Of a stretch of DNA of 64,000 nt, positions 1 through 44,167 are shown in pieces (the stretch's first letter is position 1; every line of letters begins with the position of its first letter). The DNA lies in sequence record PX880103.1; one strand, 5' to 3'. The stretch comes from a phage. The translations under genes and the position numbers were made by a program. The notes under the pieces were generated by a model. The model was not told where the DNA came from. It did no database searches and saw nothing but the letters and a program-made list of their open reading frames with translations.

Positions 1-361
1 CCATGGCATCTTCAACGTATTGAATCAATTCATAGAACTGTTCACGAGTTAATTGATTAACTTTATCCACACAACGACGATCATCTCGTTTTCGCATTGA
101 ACTCATACGAATAGTAGTATCATCGTCAATCATCCAGATTCGTTGACCTGCATACATATCAGTAATTGCTTTACGAGTACCGGCAATTCCGTTTACATCA
201 TCAGGAATAGTTATAATTTTAGCTCTAGACCCATAGGCATCATAATAAGCTTTTTCTTCATGTTCACGCACTACAATATGCGGTTCATAATCAGTCGGAA
301 ACATATCAAGGGCAGAAACTGCCCCTACGCGCTGATAACTTGGAATTACAAATTGAATCAT
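1..361 (-). CDS. Glycosyltransferase, 5' part only (gene runs off window start); GT-A-like DxD motif
   Basis: Hand translation of minus strand from ATG at 361: MIQFVIPSYQRVGAV...QRIWMIDDDTTIRM...; start overlaps gene 42 stop (ATGA); sits at the T4 beta-gt position but does not match T4 beta-gt sequence as remembered. Confidence 0.5.
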   Translation of the reverse strand, partial: MIQFVIPSYQRVGAVSALDMFPTDYEPHIVVREHEEKAYYDAYGSRAKIITIPDDVNGIAGTRKAITDMYAGQRIWMIDDDTTIRMSSMRKRDDRRCVDKVNQLTREQFYELIQYVEDAM

Positions 362-21985: not shown

Positions 21986-22283
21986 CTTCTCGGTCAAATC
22001 GGTGTTTACAATGGCGGCATTTATAACGAAGATTACTAGTCTGCCAATGGACCAATTGCACCTGTTCAGTTCCACATTCAGGGCAATTAGGAACGTTTTT
22101 AGAAGCACGTTCGCGACGTTCAACCATAACCATTACAGAATCCCAATTAACAGGAGGGCTATAATCATCACAACCATGAATCTTTCCACGCATTTCCAGA
22201 TCGTCTTCTTCACCAGCCATAATAATTTTAATTAGACTAGAATTACTTGAAGCTGCAATGTCTTCTAATAAACGCTTTTTCAT
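21969..22283 (-). CDS. Zinc-ribbon protein
   Basis: 104 aa with CPECG...CRHC pattern. Confidence 0.45.
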
Positions 22284-23206
22284 TTCAATACCTCAATAGC
22301 ATTACGTAAACCATTTGCTTTGGCGGTTAAAGCCTTGAGAACTTTAGTATGCTCTTCAATTTGTTTTTCAACTTCAACCAAACGAGCATTGAGATATTCG
22401 CGTTCTTCTTTCATAGTATCATTCCCATGATTGGATTTTGGCGTAGGTTTAAATTCACTAGGGTCCTTTAACTTAATAACAAATTTAGTTTCAAACAGTG
22501 AAAGACCATAATTCGTATTATCATCAAAGGATTTGACTACATCCATATCAGATAATAACACGCGCAAATTATAAGCCAAAGAACTAATAGTTTCATTGTG
22601 TTTATTAGCTTCGCGGGGTTTCATATACGGAAGATTTTTATATATCTCGTGCGGAGCGCAAATTATAATTGACAATTCAAATTGCCCATTCTGGGACGAT
22701 GGAGTGAATTTAGCTGTAACCCAGTCTTTTACATTCACATTAATAGTACGGTTATCACCATGACAAAACAGTCTACGAGAATGCTTAAAAAGCATATTCA
22801 CGTTATTATTGAATTCGTGTGAAAATTCACTAGCAAATTTTTCTTTACTATCTTTAGAAAACCATTCTTCTAAATAAGTTCTTTTCACGTCGTTAATAAT
22901 ATTAAATGTAACAACACTAGCATTTGATACATTAGTCTCAATGTAGCTTGGATACATAAATTTTTTAACATTATTAACAGCTATCACAGAAGATAGTAAT
23001 CGGGAACGTTTGAACCACTCGAGCAAAGAACCAAGAGAATGTGAATACGCATTTTGTGTATCTTTACAAATATGGTTTTCCCATCCAATATAGTCTAAAA
23101 AATCACGAAGAATATTATTGATTACTGCTCTGTGTCCTATCTGATAATTACGATGTTTAGTAATAAGACTGTCAAAATAATCAATATAATGTTTACGAGT
23201 TTTCAT
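22280..23206 (-). CDS. Paralog family member A (N-terminal globular region, C-terminal coiled coil)
   Basis: 308 aa; heptad-like C-terminus [31 protein letters not shown]; same architecture as the next three ORFs. Confidence 0.55.
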   Translation of the reverse strand: MKTRKHYIDYFDSLITKHRNYQIGHRAVINNILRDFLDYIGWENHICKDTQNAYSHSLGSLLEWFKRSRLLSSVIAVNNVKKFMYPSYIETNVSNASVVTFNIINDVKRTYLEEWFSKDSKEKFASEFSHEFNNNVNMLFKHSRRLFCHGDNRTINVNVKDWVTAKFTPSSQNGQFELSIIICAPHEIYKNLPYMKPREANKHNETISSLAYNLRVLLSDMDVVKSFDDNTNYGLSLFETKFVIKLKDPSEFKPTPKSNHGNDTMKEEREYLNARLVEVEKQIEEHTKVLKALTAKANGLRNAIEVLK

Positions 23207-23257
23207 GTTCTTCTCACTTGTTAATGATTTATACTCCGAGCCATCCTTGGCTTTAAA

Positions 23258-24259
23258 TTACTTAATTAACTGTAAAGCTTGTTCAAGACGATCCAAGCGA
23301 TTAACAGATTCTTCCCAAATCCTTTTAGCCTGCTCATATTCTTTCTGCGCTTTATTAGAAATTTCTAGAACTTCTTTATAAGCTTTTTCTAGTGCAATAA
23401 CTTCTGGACGAATTTCTACCGATTCAGGTGAATCGTCAAGACATTCCATTAGTTCCTCAAGGGTAGTTTCTTCTTTAGGAGTATTCACAATTTCATCACA
23501 TTTTTGTTGATAAATTTCTTTATCAGTAGGTGAGTACGCGCACTTTACTTCACGAAGACTAATTACAATTTTATATCCTTCCCAACCGCATATATTCTTA
23601 AAAGGATATGTATGAATATTTTCTACTGTTTCCATACAAAGTAATGCGGTCTCTAATTGACGAGTTATAGTGCTAGCAATTGAGAAAAATTTATTAATAT
23701 TCTTTTGGTTAGTTTCTGGTGTAAAAAATCCATAATTCACAAAAATAGCTACTTTATTTTTATCAAGCTCATATTCTTTTATGATAATCATATCAGAAGC
23801 CAAAGGATGAATTTGACGATAATCGCCATAACATAATTTAGAAGCTGATTTTAGAATTTGCTTCTTAAAAAGTCTGAAATTACTAATCCAACGACGAGTA
23901 AAAATATTCTCAGGGTCTTCTTTGACATTAAGATGATAAGAATTAACATCACCGAACCAATTATATCCTACTACATCTTTGGTTCGTTTAATTTCTTTCC
24001 CAAAATTACCAAGAATATCCCGATTAACCAAATATGAAAGAAGACGAGACTCTTTAAAGGTTTTCTTGATATTATCTTTATCTACACGGCTAGAAATTTT
24101 ACGAATTTCATGAATAAATTTAGCAGAAGAAACAATACCTGCATCAACACTATTGAGCCATTGATTGATAATAGAAAGAACGCTATTTTGGCCAAACATC
24201 GGTATAGCTTTATCATCAATAACGCTATTGAATGATTTGATATATTCGTTACGAGTCAT
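23258..24259 (-). CDS. Paralog family member B
   Basis: Start at internal MTRNEY; segment WISNFRLFKKQILKSASKL aligns with member C; C-terminal coiled coil. Confidence 0.55.
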   Translation of the reverse strand: MTRNEYIKSFNSVIDDKAIPMFGQNSVLSIINQWLNSVDAGIVSSAKFIHEIRKISSRVDKDNIKKTFKESRLLSYLVNRDILGNFGKEIKRTKDVVGYNWFGDVNSYHLNVKEDPENIFTRRWISNFRLFKKQILKSASKLCYGDYRQIHPLASDMIIIKEYELDKNKVAIFVNYGFFTPETNQKNINKFFSIASTITRQLETALLCMETVENIHTYPFKNICGWEGYKIVISLREVKCAYSPTDKEIYQQKCDEIVNTPKEETTLEELMECLDDSPESVEIRPEVIALEKAYKEVLEISNKAQKEYEQAKRIWEESVNRLDRLEQALQLIK

Positions 24260-24316
24260 AATAATCTCCTCAGTAGAAAGTAAGAACATTATACCACATC
24301 CTTGTGGCAAAGTAAA

Positions 24317-25336
24317 CTAGTTCAGTGCATTTAGTGCATTGTTCAGTTTAGAACGTTGCTTTGTCAGATTTTGAACCCTTGACTGAGCTTGTTCTAACAC
24401 CTTTTCAGCTTCTAGCACTTCATTGGTCGCTTTAATGAGTTCAGCATCTACTGCCTTAAGAGACTTCTCAATCGCGTCAGCGTGCCATTTTTCTACAGGT
24501 TTAAAATTTGAATTTTCAGTAGGAAGAAAACTCACTTTATTAAGTTTACATGCATCTATATTGCTTGAGCTATACATCCAAAATTTAGGATCGTTTGATG
24601 AGTAATTGGATAAATTTAAGATATCTTGCACTTCCTGCTTTTTCTCTCGCGGGACTTCGTCCTTTCTCAAAAAATCGTATTTAAATGAAACGATCATATC
24701 AAGTTCATATGTTGTTGTGTCTAATTTAAATCGCTCAAAACGAGGTAAAATCTTAGACTGAACAGCGGCAACAACATCCATATACTTAAATGCTTCTGTC
24801 AACTGCGATTTAAGGCATTCGCAAATTGAAAGAGAATTTTTTGTATTAGGTTTAAAGCTAATTCGTGCAGTTCTGTTATTTTCTTTTAATGGTCTTACTT
24901 CCATCTGAAGAGTATAACCATCAAATTTCAGATTCTTTAAGTTAATATCAGAACCTTTTAATCGACTAGCCGTCGACAAAATTTGCTTTAATTGTTTACG
25001 GAATAGAGCAATAAATCTCCATTCAATACGATAATGATTTGGATTGAAAAATCCAGATGATAAATCGACCTTACTCTGACCAACACCTTGAACAAATAGA
25101 GGATTTTTATAATCAATAGTTTTACAGAAATCAACGAGCTGCTCACGAGCCGTCATTTGTGTAATATACCCTGCTTCGTTAAAATGACGTAACCATTCAC
25201 TGCTATTCATATACTTAAAGTGAATGGAACTATTAACTCTATCAGGGTCTAAATTATTTTCACACAAAAATGTCATAACATCACGAGTATAACTGGCATT
25301 ACGAACCATATCTTCAATTTGAGAACGAGTTTTCAT
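24317..25336 (-). CDS. Paralog family member C
   Basis: 339 aa; EWRFIALFRKQLKQILSTASRL aligns with member B; C-terminal coiled coil. Confidence 0.55.
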   Translation of the reverse strand: MKTRSQIEDMVRNASYTRDVMTFLCENNLDPDRVNSSIHFKYMNSSEWLRHFNEAGYITQMTAREQLVDFCKTIDYKNPLFVQGVGQSKVDLSSGFFNPNHYRIEWRFIALFRKQLKQILSTASRLKGSDINLKNLKFDGYTLQMEVRPLKENNRTARISFKPNTKNSLSICECLKSQLTEAFKYMDVVAAVQSKILPRFERFKLDTTTYELDMIVSFKYDFLRKDEVPREKKQEVQDILNLSNYSSNDPKFWMYSSSNIDACKLNKVSFLPTENSNFKPVEKWHADAIEKSLKAVDAELIKATNEVLEAEKVLEQAQSRVQNLTKQRSKLNNALNALN

Positions 25337-25344
25337 GGTGTTCC

Positions 25345-26259
25345 TTAAGATTTAAGTAAATCAACAATTTTAATTAACTTTTCACGCTCAGATTTAGCTT
25401 TACTACTCAGTCCAGATAGTCTGAAAATTTCATCATCATATTGCTGAATAGAAATATTCAGCTCTTCAATCTGCTTATTAAAATAATCAATTTGTTCAGA
25501 ATGTTTTTCGTTACTACGAAATGGTACAGGTTTTGTAGGCAATTTAGTTAAACTGGATTCATCCGGGCGATAAATTAAAATACAATTTGAACCAATCGGG
25601 CATTTTGCCCCAGATGAATATTCTAATGTTCCAGCTTCTTTTAAAATTTCAAAAGCTAAACAGAGATGATGCCCCATATTAACATAATCTGTAGAGTGAG
25701 CTCTGACGTAATAATCATCTCCACGAGTGCTAAATTTAAAGCATTTAAGGTCTTCTGTATTATTGGTCTTAAAAATCATTTGTTTATCTAGACCTTTAGC
25801 TAATCGAGCGCCTAATGCTAATAATCGTCGTTGATTTTCCCACAAATCCGCAATCATTTGATCGAATGATAATTTCGGCATTAGTCGACCATAAAGGTCA
25901 TATCCTTTATTATAATTGCGAAGGATTTCACTCGCATTAATACGAGACAACGCTCCAATTTTATTAAGGGCTTTCATGATGCGATTAGATAAACTCATTC
26001 CAGACCCATTTGTTCGCTGTAAATGTTTTTCTAATCCAAATCCAATATCAACTTTAAATTTATCTAAAATTTTGGCATGAACATCTCTGTCAATAACATT
26101 CAAATCCAAAGTTGGGTTAAATCTATGAAAAAATTTATCTGGCTCTCCACGACGAAGTACAGTCCATTCATTCATCATTTTTTTATTAACTAAGGATTTA
26201 ATTACTGCATTGACATTATTAATTACTACTGACATATTTTCCTCACTCAATTTTACCAA
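25345..26259 (-). CDS. Paralog family member D
   Basis: 304 aa; DLWENQRRLLALGARLAKGL matches the family segment; C-terminal coiled coil. Confidence 0.55.
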   Translation of the reverse strand: MVKLSEENMSVVINNVNAVIKSLVNKKMMNEWTVLRRGEPDKFFHRFNPTLDLNVIDRDVHAKILDKFKVDIGFGLEKHLQRTNGSGMSLSNRIMKALNKIGALSRINASEILRNYNKGYDLYGRLMPKLSFDQMIADLWENQRRLLALGARLAKGLDKQMIFKTNNTEDLKCFKFSTRGDDYYVRAHSTDYVNMGHHLCLAFEILKEAGTLEYSSGAKCPIGSNCILIYRPDESSLTKLPTKPVPFRSNEKHSEQIDYFNKQIEELNISIQQYDDEIFRLSGLSSKAKSEREKLIKIVDLLKS

Positions 26260-26644
26260 TTACGCGGAATAAGATTGAACAAACTATATAAGTACCACAT
26301 ATAGATTGAACTAATGCCATTCCAAAGAACCAAACAATATTATCAAACCATGTCTGTTTTACGTCGAAAGGACGTAAACTTACAGTAATATTATCGCCTT
26401 TTTCTATTGAAGAATACATCTCCGGTGAAATATATTCGCTAAATCTATAACCGTCTTTGAGTTCATATACAGCAATAAACGATAAACTAGACCCCTTTCC
26501 TTGAGTTCCTGTAAGGGTATTAACTACAGTAACATCATAATCTTTATAATGCATATAATCATTAATAGCATAATAACCATATGCAACTACTATACATAAA
26601 CAACATATCAATAAATTCAATCTTTTAATTATCAACTGTTTCAT
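26243..26644 (-). CDS. Membrane protein (N- and C-terminal hydrophobic helices)
   Basis: 133 aa; hydrophobic termini flanking a polar middle. Confidence 0.45.
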   Translation of the reverse strand: MKQLIIKRLNLLICCLCIVVAYGYYAINDYMHYKDYDVTVVNTLTGTQGKGSSLSFIAVYELKDGYRFSEYISPEMYSSIEKGDNITVSLRPFDVKQTWFDNIVWFFGMALVQSICGTYIVCSILFRVIGKIE

Positions 26645-26699: not shown

Positions 26700-27227
26700 T
26701 TATGCGAGTACCGTCTTTAACCGTTCTTCAAACTTCCGAAGAGTATTCTGGCGTTCAGCTCTTTGCTTTTTGTAAGTTTCAATACGCTCTGAAATGAGAG
26801 TGTATCGTTCATTTACTGATTCTTTCATAAAATCAGGAATTTCACGAGAAGCTTTAATCTCATCAAATTTATCAATAACAGCTTGCTCTTCAGCAATTAA
26901 GTTATCATACATCAAAATATCTTTCTTGATGAACTCAATATCTTCTTGAGTTACACGAGATAATTTAGATGCTTTATCCTTTTTGTACTGTTCGTTAGTA
27001 TCACGAGACCAGTGTAATGTACGATTTTTATTCGTATTCTTGTAAATTTCTACAATACCAATCTCATCAATAATAACGATCCAATTCCAACGGGATTTGT
27101 AAATTTGTCCTCCATCAACCGTGATTTCACCTCCGATTGAGATGTCATTAAAGAACTTGCTTTGTGCTTCTGATTTAAATTTACCATCGTTGTAATTTAC
27201 CAGGTTGAAAATATCTTTAGCGTTCAT
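26700..27227 (-). CDS. Hypothetical protein with C-terminal coiled coil
   Basis: Start moved to MNAKD with GGAGGAACA SD; track N-terminus reads through the early promoter. Confidence 0.5.
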   Translation of the reverse strand: MNAKDIFNLVNYNDGKFKSEAQSKFFNDISIGGEITVDGGQIYKSRWNWIVIIDEIGIVEIYKNTNKNRTLHWSRDTNEQYKKDKASKLSRVTQEDIEFIKKDILMYDNLIAEEQAVIDKFDEIKASREIPDFMKESVNERYTLISERIETYKKQRAERQNTLRKFEERLKTVLA

Positions 27228-27248: not shown

Positions 27249-27287
27249 TAGTTGTATAGTACCACAGAGGAACGGTCTTGTAAACAA
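27249..27287 (-). promoter_or_regulatory. Early promoter
   Basis: Minus strand GTTGTTTACAAGACCGTTCCTCTGTGGTACTATACAACT. Confidence 0.6.
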
Positions 27288-27691: not shown

Positions 27692-28660
27692 TTATTTCAG
27701 AAGAGTAACCTCAGCAATTTCTTCCCAACCGTTTTTGTCGGTCATAATAAAGTCAGCAAGATAAAGAGCGGTACGCAGTGAAACATTGCGTAAACGGTTA
27801 ACATTGACTTTCATCCATGATAATGCTTTATAAGTTTCTTCATCAGAAAGACCGCGCTTTTGCATCATGTCGGTTGAAAGAATAACATCTTCAACCCTGA
27901 CCATAATTTCTTCATTAGTGTGAACACCCAAATCTAAATAAACTGAGCGGGACACTAATGCTTGTAAATGTGGAGCAAGTTTAGTACCACGGTCTAATTC
28001 GCGGTCAATATCAACGTTTGTGATAAAAACAATTGTTCCTTTAAATTCAAACTCACGATCAATGCCTTTTTCTTCTAAGTAAGAAGATGCAGTGCTCCAG
28101 CAGACTTTACGGGTCTCTCCAGTGTCCAGAGCAGCTTTCAGAAGATTAAGAATGTCCATATCAGAAAAAACATCCACATCATCAATCAAAAGGACAGAAT
28201 TCTCTTCACGATTATTCCAAAGCTGCTCATAAAGACCGATACCAGAGATTTTACCATTAATGCTTTTATACTCAATGTATCCAATATCATTTGCTTTATT
28301 CAAAGCTTTATCTAAAGAATACGTTTTACCAATACCCGCCGCACCAGAGATAATTAATGAACGAATATTTCCGTTAATAATACCATTCGTCATCATTCCC
28401 ATAACATTAAATCTTTTATTAATGCGGGTTTTCATATCTTCATATGATTCTTTAACTTCTTCAACTTTTACACCATCATATGAAATGTCTGATTTATAAA
28501 CCCAAACACCGCGACGTTTACCATCAATTTCAACAAAAACTTTACCGTCTCCTTGTGCATCTACCGGAGCATTATCTGGGAACCATTCGCCTAAGAGTTC
28601 AAAGGTTCCAGAGATTTCTTTACCGAAGTAGATACCCTTATTGATAGTTACAGTTTTCAT
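27692..28660 (-). CDS. P-loop NTPase (AAA-like ATPase) with N-terminal extra domain
   Basis: Walker A GAAGIGKTY, Walker B VLLIDDVD; start moved to MKTVTINK with GGAGAA SD. Confidence 0.6.
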   Translation of the reverse strand: MKTVTINKGIYFGKEISGTFELLGEWFPDNAPVDAQGDGKVFVEIDGKRRGVWVYKSDISYDGVKVEEVKESYEDMKTRINKRFNVMGMMTNGIINGNIRSLIISGAAGIGKTYSLDKALNKANDIGYIEYKSINGKISGIGLYEQLWNNREENSVLLIDDVDVFSDMDILNLLKAALDTGETRKVCWSTASSYLEEKGIDREFEFKGTIVFITNVDIDRELDRGTKLAPHLQALVSRSVYLDLGVHTNEEIMVRVEDVILSTDMMQKRGLSDEETYKALSWMKVNVNRLRNVSLRTALYLADFIMTDKNGWEEIAEVTLLK

Positions 28661-28740: not shown

Positions 28741-28772
28741 TTTGAAATAAAAAAGGGAGCCCGAAGGCTCCC
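28741..28772 (-). terminator. Rho-independent terminator after the nucleotidyltransferase gene
   Basis: Minus strand GGGAGCCUUCGGGCUCCC then UUUUUUAUUUC. Confidence 0.55.
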
Positions 28773-28774
28773 TA

Positions 28775-29788
28775 TCATTTATAATAACTTCGATGGTTTT
28801 CAAGATAGACCTTCTCAAGGAAGTCATCCCAGAAACTCATGTCTACTTTTTGCTGCATACCGTTCTTAGAAGCTTCAGTAGATGCTGCTTCTACTTGATC
28901 GACCACATCTTCCAAAAACTCTTGAACCGTTTTAAATGGATGTTTACCCAACTTCACGTCGAGAATAAATGGAGCATCTTGGAGTGGATAAATCAAGTCG
29001 CCAGTTTTGTAAATTTCCAATAGTTGGAGTCCACCACGACAAGCATGGCTCAGAGCTTTCCAGTCAATACCTTCGTTGGCTTCGGCCTTACGAGCACGTT
29101 CACCATATTCAGCATCTAATTTGTTCAGTGACTGCTTAAGCTCAATAAGAGAAAGCGTTGTCTGATATTTACGACCCAACACAGTGTAGAACGTTTGTGG
29201 GCCTGTTTTCTCATGATTATGGAACACCCATTCACAGAATTCGTTTTCTGGAAGACGATGCTTAATATCTTCAACTTTAGTGCGACGCTGCTTAATAGAA
29301 CCATCTTCTTGGTAATCAACCCATTGCTCAGGGATTTGATTAACTACTTTCAATACATCACGTAATGCAGCCAAACGAGAACCCTTGACACCGTATTTAG
29401 AAGCTTGCTTGCGGACATATCCTAAATATGATTTCATGTTAGTCGTATAAAAACGAGAACGGTTGTCTTGAATAAACTTCCACACATCAGGCAAATCAGA
29501 TTTAACCACTAGTTCAGGTGGAGTGTGAAGCATATCTAATGCTACGGTTTCACCATCTGCTGCTAATTTAAAGAAATATTTAAGACTGTATAGTTCATGG
29601 TCAATATCATCTTTAGTGTTTTTAGATGATGTGTTGTTAGTGTTTTTACTCATGTGCTCTTTGACATTTCCGATAAGAATATCACGAGCAGGAGGAACAA
29701 AAATTTCTTTAAAATCTACATCAGATTCTGGGGTAGAAGTTCCATAAAGATGACTACCAAAATAGCTTTTCATTACTGTTTTCATCAT
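28775..29788 (-). CDS. Putative Pol-beta-fold nucleotidyltransferase
   Basis: N-terminal GS-x10-DVD signature (FGSHLYGTSTPESDVDF), then an alpha-helical region; 337 aa. Confidence 0.5.
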   Translation of the reverse strand: MMKTVMKSYFGSHLYGTSTPESDVDFKEIFVPPARDILIGNVKEHMSKNTNNTSSKNTKDDIDHELYSLKYFFKLAADGETVALDMLHTPPELVVKSDLPDVWKFIQDNRSRFYTTNMKSYLGYVRKQASKYGVKGSRLAALRDVLKVVNQIPEQWVDYQEDGSIKQRRTKVEDIKHRLPENEFCEWVFHNHEKTGPQTFYTVLGRKYQTTLSLIELKQSLNKLDAEYGERARKAEANEGIDWKALSHACRGGLQLLEIYKTGDLIYPLQDAPFILDVKLGKHPFKTVQEFLEDVVDQVEAASTEASKNGMQQKVDMSFWDDFLEKVYLENHRSYYK

Positions 29789-42228: not shown

Positions 42229-42822
42229 TTATTTCAGAGAATTAATGTATTCCTGAACATCGGCAGAGGTAGTTTCAACCCCAGAAATATTACCATTAAA
42301 GGTTTCAACTCGAGCAAGAGTATCTTCAATATCAACCTTAGTCAGCGCTGCAATTTCAACTACATCATCGGCAGTACTAATTCCAAGGGCATTTGCTGCA
42401 CGAGTTTCACGGATATATTCCAATTTAACTGCAAGTTCTTGGCGAGCATCATCTAACTCAACTACTTTCTTAGCGATTTCAATTCGCATTTCAGCATACC
42501 CATCAGCTTTAGTAGTCAGCTGTTCAGCTGTTCGACGATATAGCAAACCGAGTTTAGCATGCATTGTTACATCTTGACCTTCGGAAAGAAGCTTGCGAAT
42601 TTCACGCTCTTTTGATTCGGCCTGTTTATTCTTTTCAATAACAAGTTCACGAATACGTTTTTCTTCATTAATAGATTTAATAGAAGCAGTTTTTAGATCT
42701 TTAATTTTATCAAGTAGTTTTGCTGCCGCAGCAGTATACTGTTCTTCAACAGATAGATTTTTAGCCATAGCAGAACCGAGTTTAGTGCGAATAAACTCAA
42801 CAATTTTCTTCAGTGTGTTCAT
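42229..42822 (-). CDS. Coiled-coil protein
   Basis: 197 aa, largely helical heptad-like sequence. Confidence 0.45.
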
Positions 42823-43603: not shown

Positions 43604-44167
43604 TTATTTACCTAGTTTAGTTATTATAGCTTCGGCAGCAGCTTTTAGCTTAGATGCAGTGTTAATACGATTTTTAATTTCAGTATAAGCATCGCCAAGA
43701 ACATCAAGGCTATCAGAATAAACACTTACACTATTGCGTTCGCTATTTGAAATAGAACCTTTAGTTTTACGATCAAAATCAGTGTACACATCTTGAAGAT
43801 CGCGGGCTGCCTTCTTTGCATCATCTAACGCATCAAGAGCTTTATTCAAAGCATTGACATATTTTTTAGTATCAAACATATTCTTAGAAATTTTGACAGG
43901 TGCGCGTTCAGGAGTAGCTAAGGCAGATTTAGGAACCTGAGCGCCTGATGCTAATTTCTTAGAAATTTTGAAAAATGCTTTATTGAATTTATTTTCTTGA
44001 CTCATCGTAAAAGAACTATTATCAATGTTATACATTTCAATAGCTTTAGCTTTCCACTTAAGAAAATCGCCACGGTCTTTTGGGTCCAATTGGAAGAATA
44101 CTTTAGTAAGATCTGCTTCAGATGGTAATTTTGCTGCTTCGGTTAAAAATTCGGCATAGGTTTTCAT
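43604..44167 (-). CDS. Candidate internal protein with capsid-targeting-like leader
   Basis: Starts MKTYAEFLTEA, same leader pattern as the ip genes; 187 aa; followed by a terminator. Confidence 0.5.
   Translation of the reverse strand: MKTYAEFLTEAAKLPSEADLTKVFFQLDPKDRGDFLKWKAKAIEMYNIDNSSFTMSQENKFNKAFFKISKKLASGAQVPKSALATPERAPVKISKNMFDTKKYVNALNKALDALDDAKKAARDLQDVYTDFDRKTKGSISNSERNSVSVYSDSLDVLGDAYTEIKNRINTASKLKAAAEAIITKLGK

Follow-up and report, generated by a model that had tools for sequence, protein, structure and literature searches.

Four diverged paralogs beside nrdC in a T4-like phage form a candidate early counter-defence array

Sequence record PX880103.1 was analysed over a window of 64,000 nucleotides (the whole stretch of DNA considered here), which represents the genome of a T4-like myovirus of the genus Tequatrovirus. 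This window encodes, on its minus strand, an array of four consecutive genes, nrdC.3, nrdC.4, nrdC.5 and nrdC.6 (labelled A, B, C and D, respectively). The surroundings, all on the same strand, comprise nrdD, 49 (endonuclease VII), pin, nrdC and then the series nrdC.1 to nrdC.11, to which the array belongs. Gene names were checked against the annotated T4 record U76612, and the 4.7 kb around the array match 569 phage records, mostly at 90-95% DNA identity. An initial annotation of the window, made from the letters without database searches, had described four consecutive minus-strand genes of 304-339 amino acids (aa); their order and strand hold, and the length of NrdC.6 is corrected here from 304 to 296 aa. 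Features of the array are listed in Table 1.

Table 1. Genes, promoter sites, mid-protein motifs and C-terminal helices of the nrdC.3-nrdC.6 array (positions in the window; fractions give shuffles in the heptad analysis; AF2, AlphaFold2)
Feature	Position	Strand	Remarks
Gene A = nrdC.3	22280-23206	-	308 aa; 91.6% identical to T4 NrdC.3
Gene B = nrdC.4	23258-24259	-	333 aa; 97.0% identical to T4 NrdC.4
Gene C = nrdC.5	24317-25336	-	339 aa; 91.8% identical to T4 NrdC.5, same length, syntenic
Gene D = nrdC.6	25345-26235	-	296 aa; 97.3% identical to T4 NrdC.6
T4 early-type promoter	24288-24317	-	GTTTAC-N18-TATAAT with TG, perfect; 29 nt upstream of nrdC.4
Promoter-like site upstream of nrdC.8	27256-27284	-	U76612 annotates -35 and -10 signals at the counterpart position
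Mid-protein helix motif, NrdC.3 residues 139-152	22751-22792	-	LFKHSRRLFCHGDN
Mid-protein helix motif, NrdC.4 residues 135-146	23822-23857	-	ILKSASKLCYGD; inside model helix pair 119-142
Mid-protein helix motif, NrdC.5 residues 119-130	24947-24982	-	ILSTASRLKGSD
Mid-protein helix motif, NrdC.6 residues 138-150	25786-25824	-	LLALGARLAKGLD; most conserved segment of the D family
C-terminal amphipathic heptad helix, NrdC.3 residues 264-308	22283-22417	-	best heptad window; 15/200 shuffles
C-terminal helix, NrdC.4 residues 285-333	23261-23407	-	AF2 helix 285-332; 12/200 shuffles
C-terminal heptad helix, NrdC.5 residues 285-339	24320-24484	-	best window with all a/d positions hydrophobic; 0/200 shuffles
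C-terminal helices, NrdC.6 residues 243-272 and 278-295	25351-25509	-	AF2; break at LSGLSS; 0/200 shuffles

Two of the gene starts could be refined. The nrdC.4 gene starts at the ATG at 24259, which is served by a GAGGAG ribosome-binding site, and a longer open reading frame (ORF) beginning with TTG (to 24310) is unlikely to represent the real start. In the case of nrdC.6, a GAGG ribosome-binding site precedes the ATG at 26235; this ATG is therefore most likely the start, rather than the TTG at 26259 that would yield 304 aa. The T4 record U76612 (L016 3103-3989) carries a frameshift after residue 259 of NrdC.6, so that the last 37 residues lie in another frame and the annotated product has 275 aa. 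More recent T4 records have one uninterrupted frame of 296 aa, and the frameshift is probably a sequencing error.

Public databases keep the four proteins in three unrelated families, which are linked here as one superfamily. In detail, (i) full-length matches to phrog_1435 were obtained for NrdC.3 (2.9e-101) and NrdC.4 (6.6e-168), all 63 of the 63 NrdC.4 homologs carry a precomputed PF26897 assignment and nrdC.3 falls in the same family, (ii) NrdC.5 belongs to Pfam DUF7235 (PF23882; 375.3 bits, E 3.5e-112, full length) and to phrog_2351, and (iii) NrdC.6 matches phrog_2257 at 1.3e-150, with PF26899 precomputed for 105/105 homologs. Membership of DUF7235 was taken as a score above the Pfam gathering cutoff of 30 bits; NrdC.3 reaches 13.9 bits, under this cutoff and through the C-terminal helix only, and the Pfam scan gave no DUF7235 match in NrdC.4 or NrdC.6, leaving NrdC.5 as the only member among the four. 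As far as could be found, neither the union of these three families (PF26897, DUF7235 and PF26899; PHROGs 1435, 2351 and 2257) nor its extension to many genera of the Straboviridae has been described previously. Many phage records label all nrdC.x genes, these four included, as 'thioredoxin'. No thioredoxin similarity was detected in any of NrdC.3, NrdC.4, NrdC.5 and NrdC.6, and this name was evidently propagated from the nrdC prefix of the gene names.

The four proteins are real paralogs, and their relatedness goes beyond chance. Among them, BLASTP detected only the pair NrdC.3-NrdC.4 (E 0.001, 23% over 176 residues), and each protein used as a tblastn query returned a single place per genome. 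Because pairwise BLASTP was too insensitive, profile methods were used. NrdC.3 and NrdC.4 align by hhalign with 98% probability (E 1.7e-13, A 3-232 against B 2-220), and the hidden Markov models (HMMs) of the two families match each other's members reciprocally at 1e-9 to 1e-17. A combined A+B profile aligns to NrdC.5 with 80% probability (E 1.3e-5) over 245 colinear columns. For the latter comparison, a natural NrdC.5-NrdC.3 chimera (P0056) was taken out of the C profile and C-type proteins of RB69, JS10, vB_EcoM_005 and ECML-359 were added; a first A-C profile match was spurious, having been produced by the chimera, and was discarded. Scores were compared with those of column-shuffled target alignments, in which composition is kept: the A-B score of 96.9 stands against a shuffled maximum of 23.0 (z 31), and the AB-C score of 46.3 against 18.7 (z 16.8, 0/80 shuffles).

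The position of NrdC.6 was reached by another route. By direct sequence profile, the AB-D and C-D comparisons are only marginal (z ~3 against shuffles), and NrdC.6 joins the family through predicted structures and bridging proteins. AlphaFold2 (AF2) models were built from family alignments for two of the proteins, NrdC.4 (predicted local distance difference test, pLDDT, 82.8) and NrdC.6 (pLDDT 78.9), and their secondary-structure elements occur in identical order. Six N-terminal helices and small strands are followed by a helix pair at ~120-150; a beta-hairpin and a long helix come next, then another beta-hairpin, from which a poorly ordered linker leads to the long C-terminal helix. In Foldseek searches of the viral structure library BFVD, the NrdC.4 model matched NrdC.3 of fPS-65 (E 3.4e-8) and, over the full length, NrdC.6 of JS10 (E 2.2e-5). 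Furthermore, most of the significant Foldseek matches are common to the two models; these are uncharacterised proteins of 300-370 aa from Pectobacterium phage PM2, Enterobacter phage IME523, Acinetobacter phages fHyAci03 and Acj61 (two, with adjacent accessions), Yersinia phage fHe-Yen9-01 and Serratia phage CBH8. Foldseek probabilities were 1.00, with modest template-modelling (TM) scores (0.38-0.50), a range to be expected when models have several domains and a free helix. Among the bridging sequences, the family of phiR1-RT g087 aligns colinearly to A/B (204 columns, z 8.5) and also to NrdC.6 (z 6.2, with its core on D 127-151); AM101 orf116, which adjoins nrdC, aligns to NrdC.5 (E 2.4e-4) and shares 96.7% identity with the protein of fHyAci03 matched by both the B and the D models. 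The four-paralog family proposed in the initial annotation is upheld by profile alignment for A, B and C, and by Foldseek and the g087 bridge for NrdC.6.

All four proteins begin with a helical bundle, which is followed by the conserved mid-protein helix motif and an α/β domain; a C-terminal amphipathic helix of 45-55 residues completes them. The mid-protein segment, whose sharing had already been noticed from the translations, was recovered in three ways: the hhalign register places B 122-142 opposite C 106-126, the segment is the helix pair before the first hairpin in the models of both NrdC.4 and NrdC.6, and it forms the core of the g087-D alignment. A pattern written for this motif occurs at A139, B135, C119 and D138 and in 0/57 of the other window ORFs of at least 120 aa, and is also found in members from RB69, JS10 and phiR1-RT that were not used in writing it; this pattern was defined post hoc and some family members are without it.

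A heptad-like C-terminus had likewise been predicted, and is confirmed in that the best heptad window of the whole protein begins 45-55 residues before the end in all four, where the AF2 models also place long helices; among the 50 window ORFs that reach 150 aa or more, only six have their best window in this position. The periodicity is significant for NrdC.5 and NrdC.6 (0/200) and marginal for NrdC.3 and NrdC.4 (12-15/200). This helix ranks with the better conserved blocks inside each orthologous family. When paralogs are compared, their last 42 residues show 4-11 identities, a level not significantly above that of heptad-preserving shuffles (p 0.07-0.7 for single pairs and 0.02 for the sum of pairs), and only the last ~10 residues are common, as an L-x-x-A/I-[IL]-x-x-L-K ending. 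What the paralogs have in common is the type of helix and not its sequence, and the C-terminal helices were rejected as a conserved module, being no more alike than such shuffles. The data do not bear out the picture first drawn of the array, that of a conserved C-terminal oligomerisation module joined to diverged and swappable N-terminal recognition domains: the homology between A and B lies in the N-terminal two thirds (residues 3-232), and the protein is a single scaffold that has diverged throughout, with its strongest conservation mid-protein.

The array evolves faster than the genes around it. Identity between genera is 22-56% for NrdC.3-NrdC.6 versus 69-92% for gp49, NrdC, NrdC.8, NrdC.10 and NrdC.11. 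Inside Tequatrovirus, the ratio of nonsynonymous to synonymous substitution rates (dN/dS) is 0.14-0.36 for A, B and C, 0.06-0.15 for D and 0-0.08 for the conserved neighbours, the values of A, B and C being 3-6 times those of the neighbours. Alleles of nrdC.3 are sharply distinct within the genus: 138 records lie at 90% identity or above, 322 at 60-80% and 192 below 60%, and the flanking genes are 96-100% identical; classes at ~60% identity thus occur within genomes that are nearly identical elsewhere. The synonymous divergence (dS) of nrdC.3 versus RB14 is 0.99, compared with 0.05-0.30 for its neighbours. Together with the divergent alleles, this high dS suggests that nrdC.3 alleles may be replaced through recombination. 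A comparable dimorphism is seen in Lazarusvirus phages, where the homolog of AM101 orf116 falls into two allele classes (over 93% and ~36% identity).

The superfamily is found only in T4-like (Straboviridae) phages, always near nrdC and in 1-4 copies. In the phage collection, a detectable match was obtained in 654 records for NrdC.3, 554 for NrdC.4, 549 for NrdC.5 and 742 for NrdC.6. No cellular homolog was recovered when an A+B profile HMM was run against 1.84 billion representative proteins, the nine matches being all of A/B type. The superfamily reaches uncharacterised proteins of ~300 aa in T4-like phages of Acinetobacter, Yersinia, Klebsiella, Serratia, Erwinia, Pectobacterium and Aeromonas; the distant T4-like phages phiR1-RT (L015 11224-12210 and 17388-18266) and AM101 (L014 15394-16401) have genes near nrdC whose products, of 292-335 aa, share both the architecture and the ending of the C-terminal helix. 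Copy number across T4-like genomes, a survey of which had been proposed with the initial annotation, does vary: T4-type phages have four copies, RB69, GADS24 and JS10 three, ESCO47 two, Acinetobacter Lazarusvirus one, and ACG-C40 one (nrdC.6) plus a remnant.

The array is prone to deletions between its members, several of which have left fusions. Salmonella phage Manna (L011 4215-5252) encodes an in-frame chimera of 345 aa in which residues 1-~270 of NrdC.6 (87% identity) are followed by residues ~255-333 of NrdC.4 (95% identity); the joint falls at a common DEI, nrdC.5 and most of nrdC.4 are lost, and the gene corresponds to window positions 23258-26235. In the metagenomic protein P0056, residues 146-~266 of NrdC.5 are fused to residues ~136-308 of NrdC.3. 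The remnant in ACG-C40 (L005 6802-7213) consists of ~68-71 codons of nrdC.5, followed by DNA for the last 69 residues of NrdC.3. A rearrangement of another kind is present in NrdC.6 of Shigella phage Sf25 (P0121, 378 aa), where residues 177-259 (82 aa, covering the second beta-hairpin and the linker) are duplicated internally in tandem.

Regarding expression, U76612 annotates 'early promoter 50.0' at the position matching the perfect early-type promoter upstream of nrdC.4. The promoter-like site upstream of nrdC.8 probably drives the tightly packed run nrdC.8-nrdC.7-nrdC.6-nrdC.5; the gaps between nrdC.7 and nrdC.6 and between nrdC.6 and nrdC.5 are 7-8 nt, and co-transcription of this run appears plausible. 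More generally, the promoter signals annotated in U76612 before nrdC.8 and nrdC.10 and the terminator after nrdC.11 all have counterparts in the window. With early promoters driving nrdC.3-nrdC.6, the four proteins would be made in the first minutes of infection.

A function has been reported for one member of the array. When supplied on a plasmid, T4 nrdC.5 allows a T4 deletion clone to plate again on Escherichia coli with the Dsr1 defence gene of ECOR17 (Srikant, Guegler and Laub, eLife 2022, PMC9391042). In the same study, disruption of dsr1 in the host restored infection, and plasmid-borne dsr1 protected MG1655 against the T4 clone (PMC9391042). Since the NrdC.5 of the window is the ortholog of the T4 protein (91.8% identity over the full length, same position between nrdC.6 and nrdC.4) and the T4 copy rescues, it is very probably an anti-Dsr1 factor. 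The initial annotation had offered anti-defence as a guess and had been unable to tie the family to any described function. The guess is supported for nrdC.5 by the published T4 rescue (PMC9391042), and the pattern of a family tracking its hosts by the divergence, dN/dS and copy number. The statement on function no longer applies to nrdC.5, given the 2022 anti-Dsr1 report, and stands for nrdC.3, nrdC.4 and nrdC.6, for which a literature search returned neither a functional report nor a mention of relatedness to nrdC.5. As to their general nature, NrdC.3-NrdC.6 are soluble and without membrane segment; NrdC.3, NrdC.5 and NrdC.6 are basic (pI 9.1-9.6 for the globular parts) and NrdC.4 is neutral. 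An acidic DNA mimic of the Ocr type was considered and rejected, the proteins being basic or neutral.

Taken together, these data are best explained, with somewhat better than even confidence, by four anciently duplicated and fast-diverging copies of one scaffold that form an early counter-defence array, with NrdC.5 directed against Dsr1 and the other three against other immune proteins, acting by sensor binding and helix-mediated oligomerisation. In this scheme, (i) nrdC.3-nrdC.6 would be transcribed from the early promoters, so that the proteins appear at the very onset of infection, (ii) NrdC.5 would neutralise the sirtuin (NAD-depleting) defence Dsr1, and NrdC.3, NrdC.4 and NrdC.6 would most likely neutralise other host immune proteins, (iii) the globular part may bind the sensor region of the immune protein directly and stoichiometrically, preventing its activation, by analogy with DSAD1 and DSR2, and (iv) the C-terminal helix, through which the proteins are predicted to oligomerise, could confer higher avidity for immune proteins that are themselves oligomeric. 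Sensor blocking is a plausible route because the sensor of Dsr1 binds a phage protein: its TPR domain, common with Avs7, is triggered by the phage major capsid protein (2026 preprint, PMC12803255).

Several points weigh against this explanation. NrdC.6 is well conserved within Tequatrovirus (dN/dS as above; 95-99% identity in 462 records), and overall dN/dS is below 1 for all four genes. The functional evidence concerns one of the four proteins and was obtained with its ortholog in T4 (92% identical) rather than with the protein of this phage; it consists of genetic rescue only, and the rescued T4 deletion clone may still have encoded other paralogs. The place of NrdC.5 in the fold rests on profile alignment, and oligomerisation is read from heptad periodicity only, which is marginal for NrdC.3 and NrdC.4.

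The rival that survives best holds that only NrdC.5 is a counter-defence protein and that the same scaffold serves NrdC.3, NrdC.4 and NrdC.6 in different early roles, such as the redirection of host proteins of transcription, nucleotide metabolism or proteolysis. The conservation of nrdC.6, much stronger than that of the others within Tequatrovirus, is what a conserved host target would produce, the basic globular parts of A, C and D would suit the binding of nucleic acids or of acidic host proteins, the neighbouring pin (Lon inhibitor) is a host-takeover factor, and functional reports are absent for the other three. However, all four genes vary in presence and have undergone natural deletions without loss of viability, which is typical of host-range accessory genes, and their divergence between genera is far above that of nearby genes acting on conserved host machinery. 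This rival is held to be rather unlikely, with appreciable weight.

An extension of the counter-defence explanation, tentative and unlikely, is that the α/β domain is a copied phage neck-protein fold of the tail-terminator or tail-completion type; the proteins would then serve as early oligomeric decoys that fill the pockets of TPR-type sensors (Dsr1, Avs-type) without activating them, each paralog being tuned to another sensor. TPR-like sensors related to that of Dsr1 envelop other structural-protein folds, the tail terminator included (PMC12803255). The scores against tail-terminator and tail-completion proteins (lambda gpU, DUF3168, T5 p142, Mu, P74-26 and gene transfer agent, GTA) lie below the usual homology level, and the match would fall on the central domain. 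Unlike tail-terminator proteins, the nrdC proteins are twice as large, early and non-virion, and carry extra helical domains. If the decoy idea were true, nrdC.3-nrdC.6 and their Straboviridae relatives would be general structural-protein mimics that antagonise immune receptors.

It is quite unlikely that NrdC.3-NrdC.6 assemble through their C-terminal helices into one hetero-oligomeric complex with a single function (anti-Dsr1 or another). The helices are compatible and amphipathic with a similar ending, the genes are adjacent and probably in part co-transcribed, and the phage used in the rescue may have supplied partners. Yet viable phages have from one to four copies (ACG-C40 with nrdC.6 as the only intact gene, ESCO47 with two, RB69 and JS10 with three, Acinetobacter phages with one), the members evolve at very different rates, and plasmid-borne nrdC.5 alone sufficed for rescue.

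A catalytic action, by which the proteins would modify the immune protein or restore NAD instead of binding stoichiometrically, appears very unlikely. Other phage answers to NAD-depleting defences are enzymatic (e.g. the NARP pathways), and a number of polar residues are invariant within each family. Searches of Pfam, NCBIfam and PADLOC gave no match to a catalytic family, those of NCBIfam and PADLOC yielding only noise, and sequence searches of the PDB with NrdC.5 and with the B and D profiles returned nothing below E 0.4. Finally, a merely compositional resemblance (AT-rich, lysine-rich proteins with coiled-coil tails) in place of true paralogy is hardly tenable, since, against the poor BLASTP and tblastn signals and an A/B profile HMM search that never reaches NrdC.5 or NrdC.6, shuffles that keep composition score far lower, the alignments are colinear over 200-245 columns, and independent structural evidence and bridging sequences agree on homology; for NrdC.3, NrdC.4 and NrdC.5, the column-shuffle controls refute it.

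Among known systems, the closest is T4 NrdC.5 itself: the window NrdC.5 is its syntenic ortholog in the same DUF7235 family, NrdC.3, NrdC.4 and NrdC.6 are distant paralogs on the same scaffold, and the anti-Dsr1 effect was shown, by genetic rescue, for T4's own copy. The counter-defence family of nrdC.5 was thus already known, and the array consists of paralogs of a known anti-defence protein; it is no new category of system. DSAD1 of Bacillus SPbeta-like phages silences DSR2, a defence-associated sirtuin NADase, by binding; the likeness to NrdC.5 is one of functional analogy, and neither sequence nor fold similarity to DSAD1 was found for the window proteins. The 'anti-TA (toxin-antitoxin) island' dmd-tifA-adfA of T4 (PMC9391042) resembles the array as a cluster of early non-essential genes in a variable region, each acting against a different host defence. 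Whereas that island is made of unrelated small proteins, nrdC.3-nrdC.6 are paralogs of a single scaffold of ~300 aa.

T4 is the best-studied lytic phage, and about half of its genes are without known function. With the superfamily defined, nrdC.3, nrdC.4, nrdC.6 and their ~300-aa relatives in T4-like phages of Acinetobacter, Klebsiella, Yersinia, Serratia and other hosts become specific candidates for immune antagonists that can be put to the test. Truncations can be designed from the domain boundaries given by the mid-protein motif and the C-terminal helix, and the natural chimeras and deletions are ready-made genetic tests. In phage therapy, the presence or absence of array genes may help to predict host range on Dsr1-type strains.

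Some neighbouring genes of the window deserve mention. NrdC.8 (26700-27227, 175 aa) was considered as a fifth, shorter member and rejected, the profile comparison giving E above 0.05. Its C-terminus is a heptad-like helix (best window 132-173; 5/200 shuffles), and its length is that of a 175-aa protein of KPV15 with a weak Foldseek match to the NrdC.4 model; by phmmer, the KPV15 protein is not a homolog of NrdC.8. Other mid-sized ORFs near nrdC in KPV15, AM101 and phiR1-RT (gp124, gp116, orf119, g089 and g088) showed no similarity. Elsewhere in the window, an ORF at 42229-42822 (197 aa, phrog_1203) has sub-threshold matches to profile A (E 0.011) and profile B (E 0.043), and another at 43604-44167 (187 aa, phrog_2280) has its best heptad window at the C-terminus; both are without a Pfam match.

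The nrdC.7 gene (26243-26644, 133 aa), separated from nrdC.6 by 7 nt, encodes a small predicted membrane protein with hydrophobic N- and C-termini. Its dN/dS of 0.26-0.32 is as high as that of the paralogs, it is 40% identical in Mosigvirus and it is absent from JS10 and ECML-359; nrdC.7 looks like another fast-evolving accessory gene. Further along the series, nrdC.10 (27692-28660) encodes a P-loop ATPase with weak Pfam matches of AAA/STAND type, and is paired with nrdC.11 (28775-29788), an RlaP-type nucleotidyltransferase of the polymerase-beta family; the pair is conserved, and nrdC.11, found in every T4-like genus (1,518 phage records), is distributed more widely than the array members. 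Between these two genes, at 28754-28773 on the minus strand, a perfect 8-bp GC-rich hairpin is followed by a T-run and matches the terminator of U76612.

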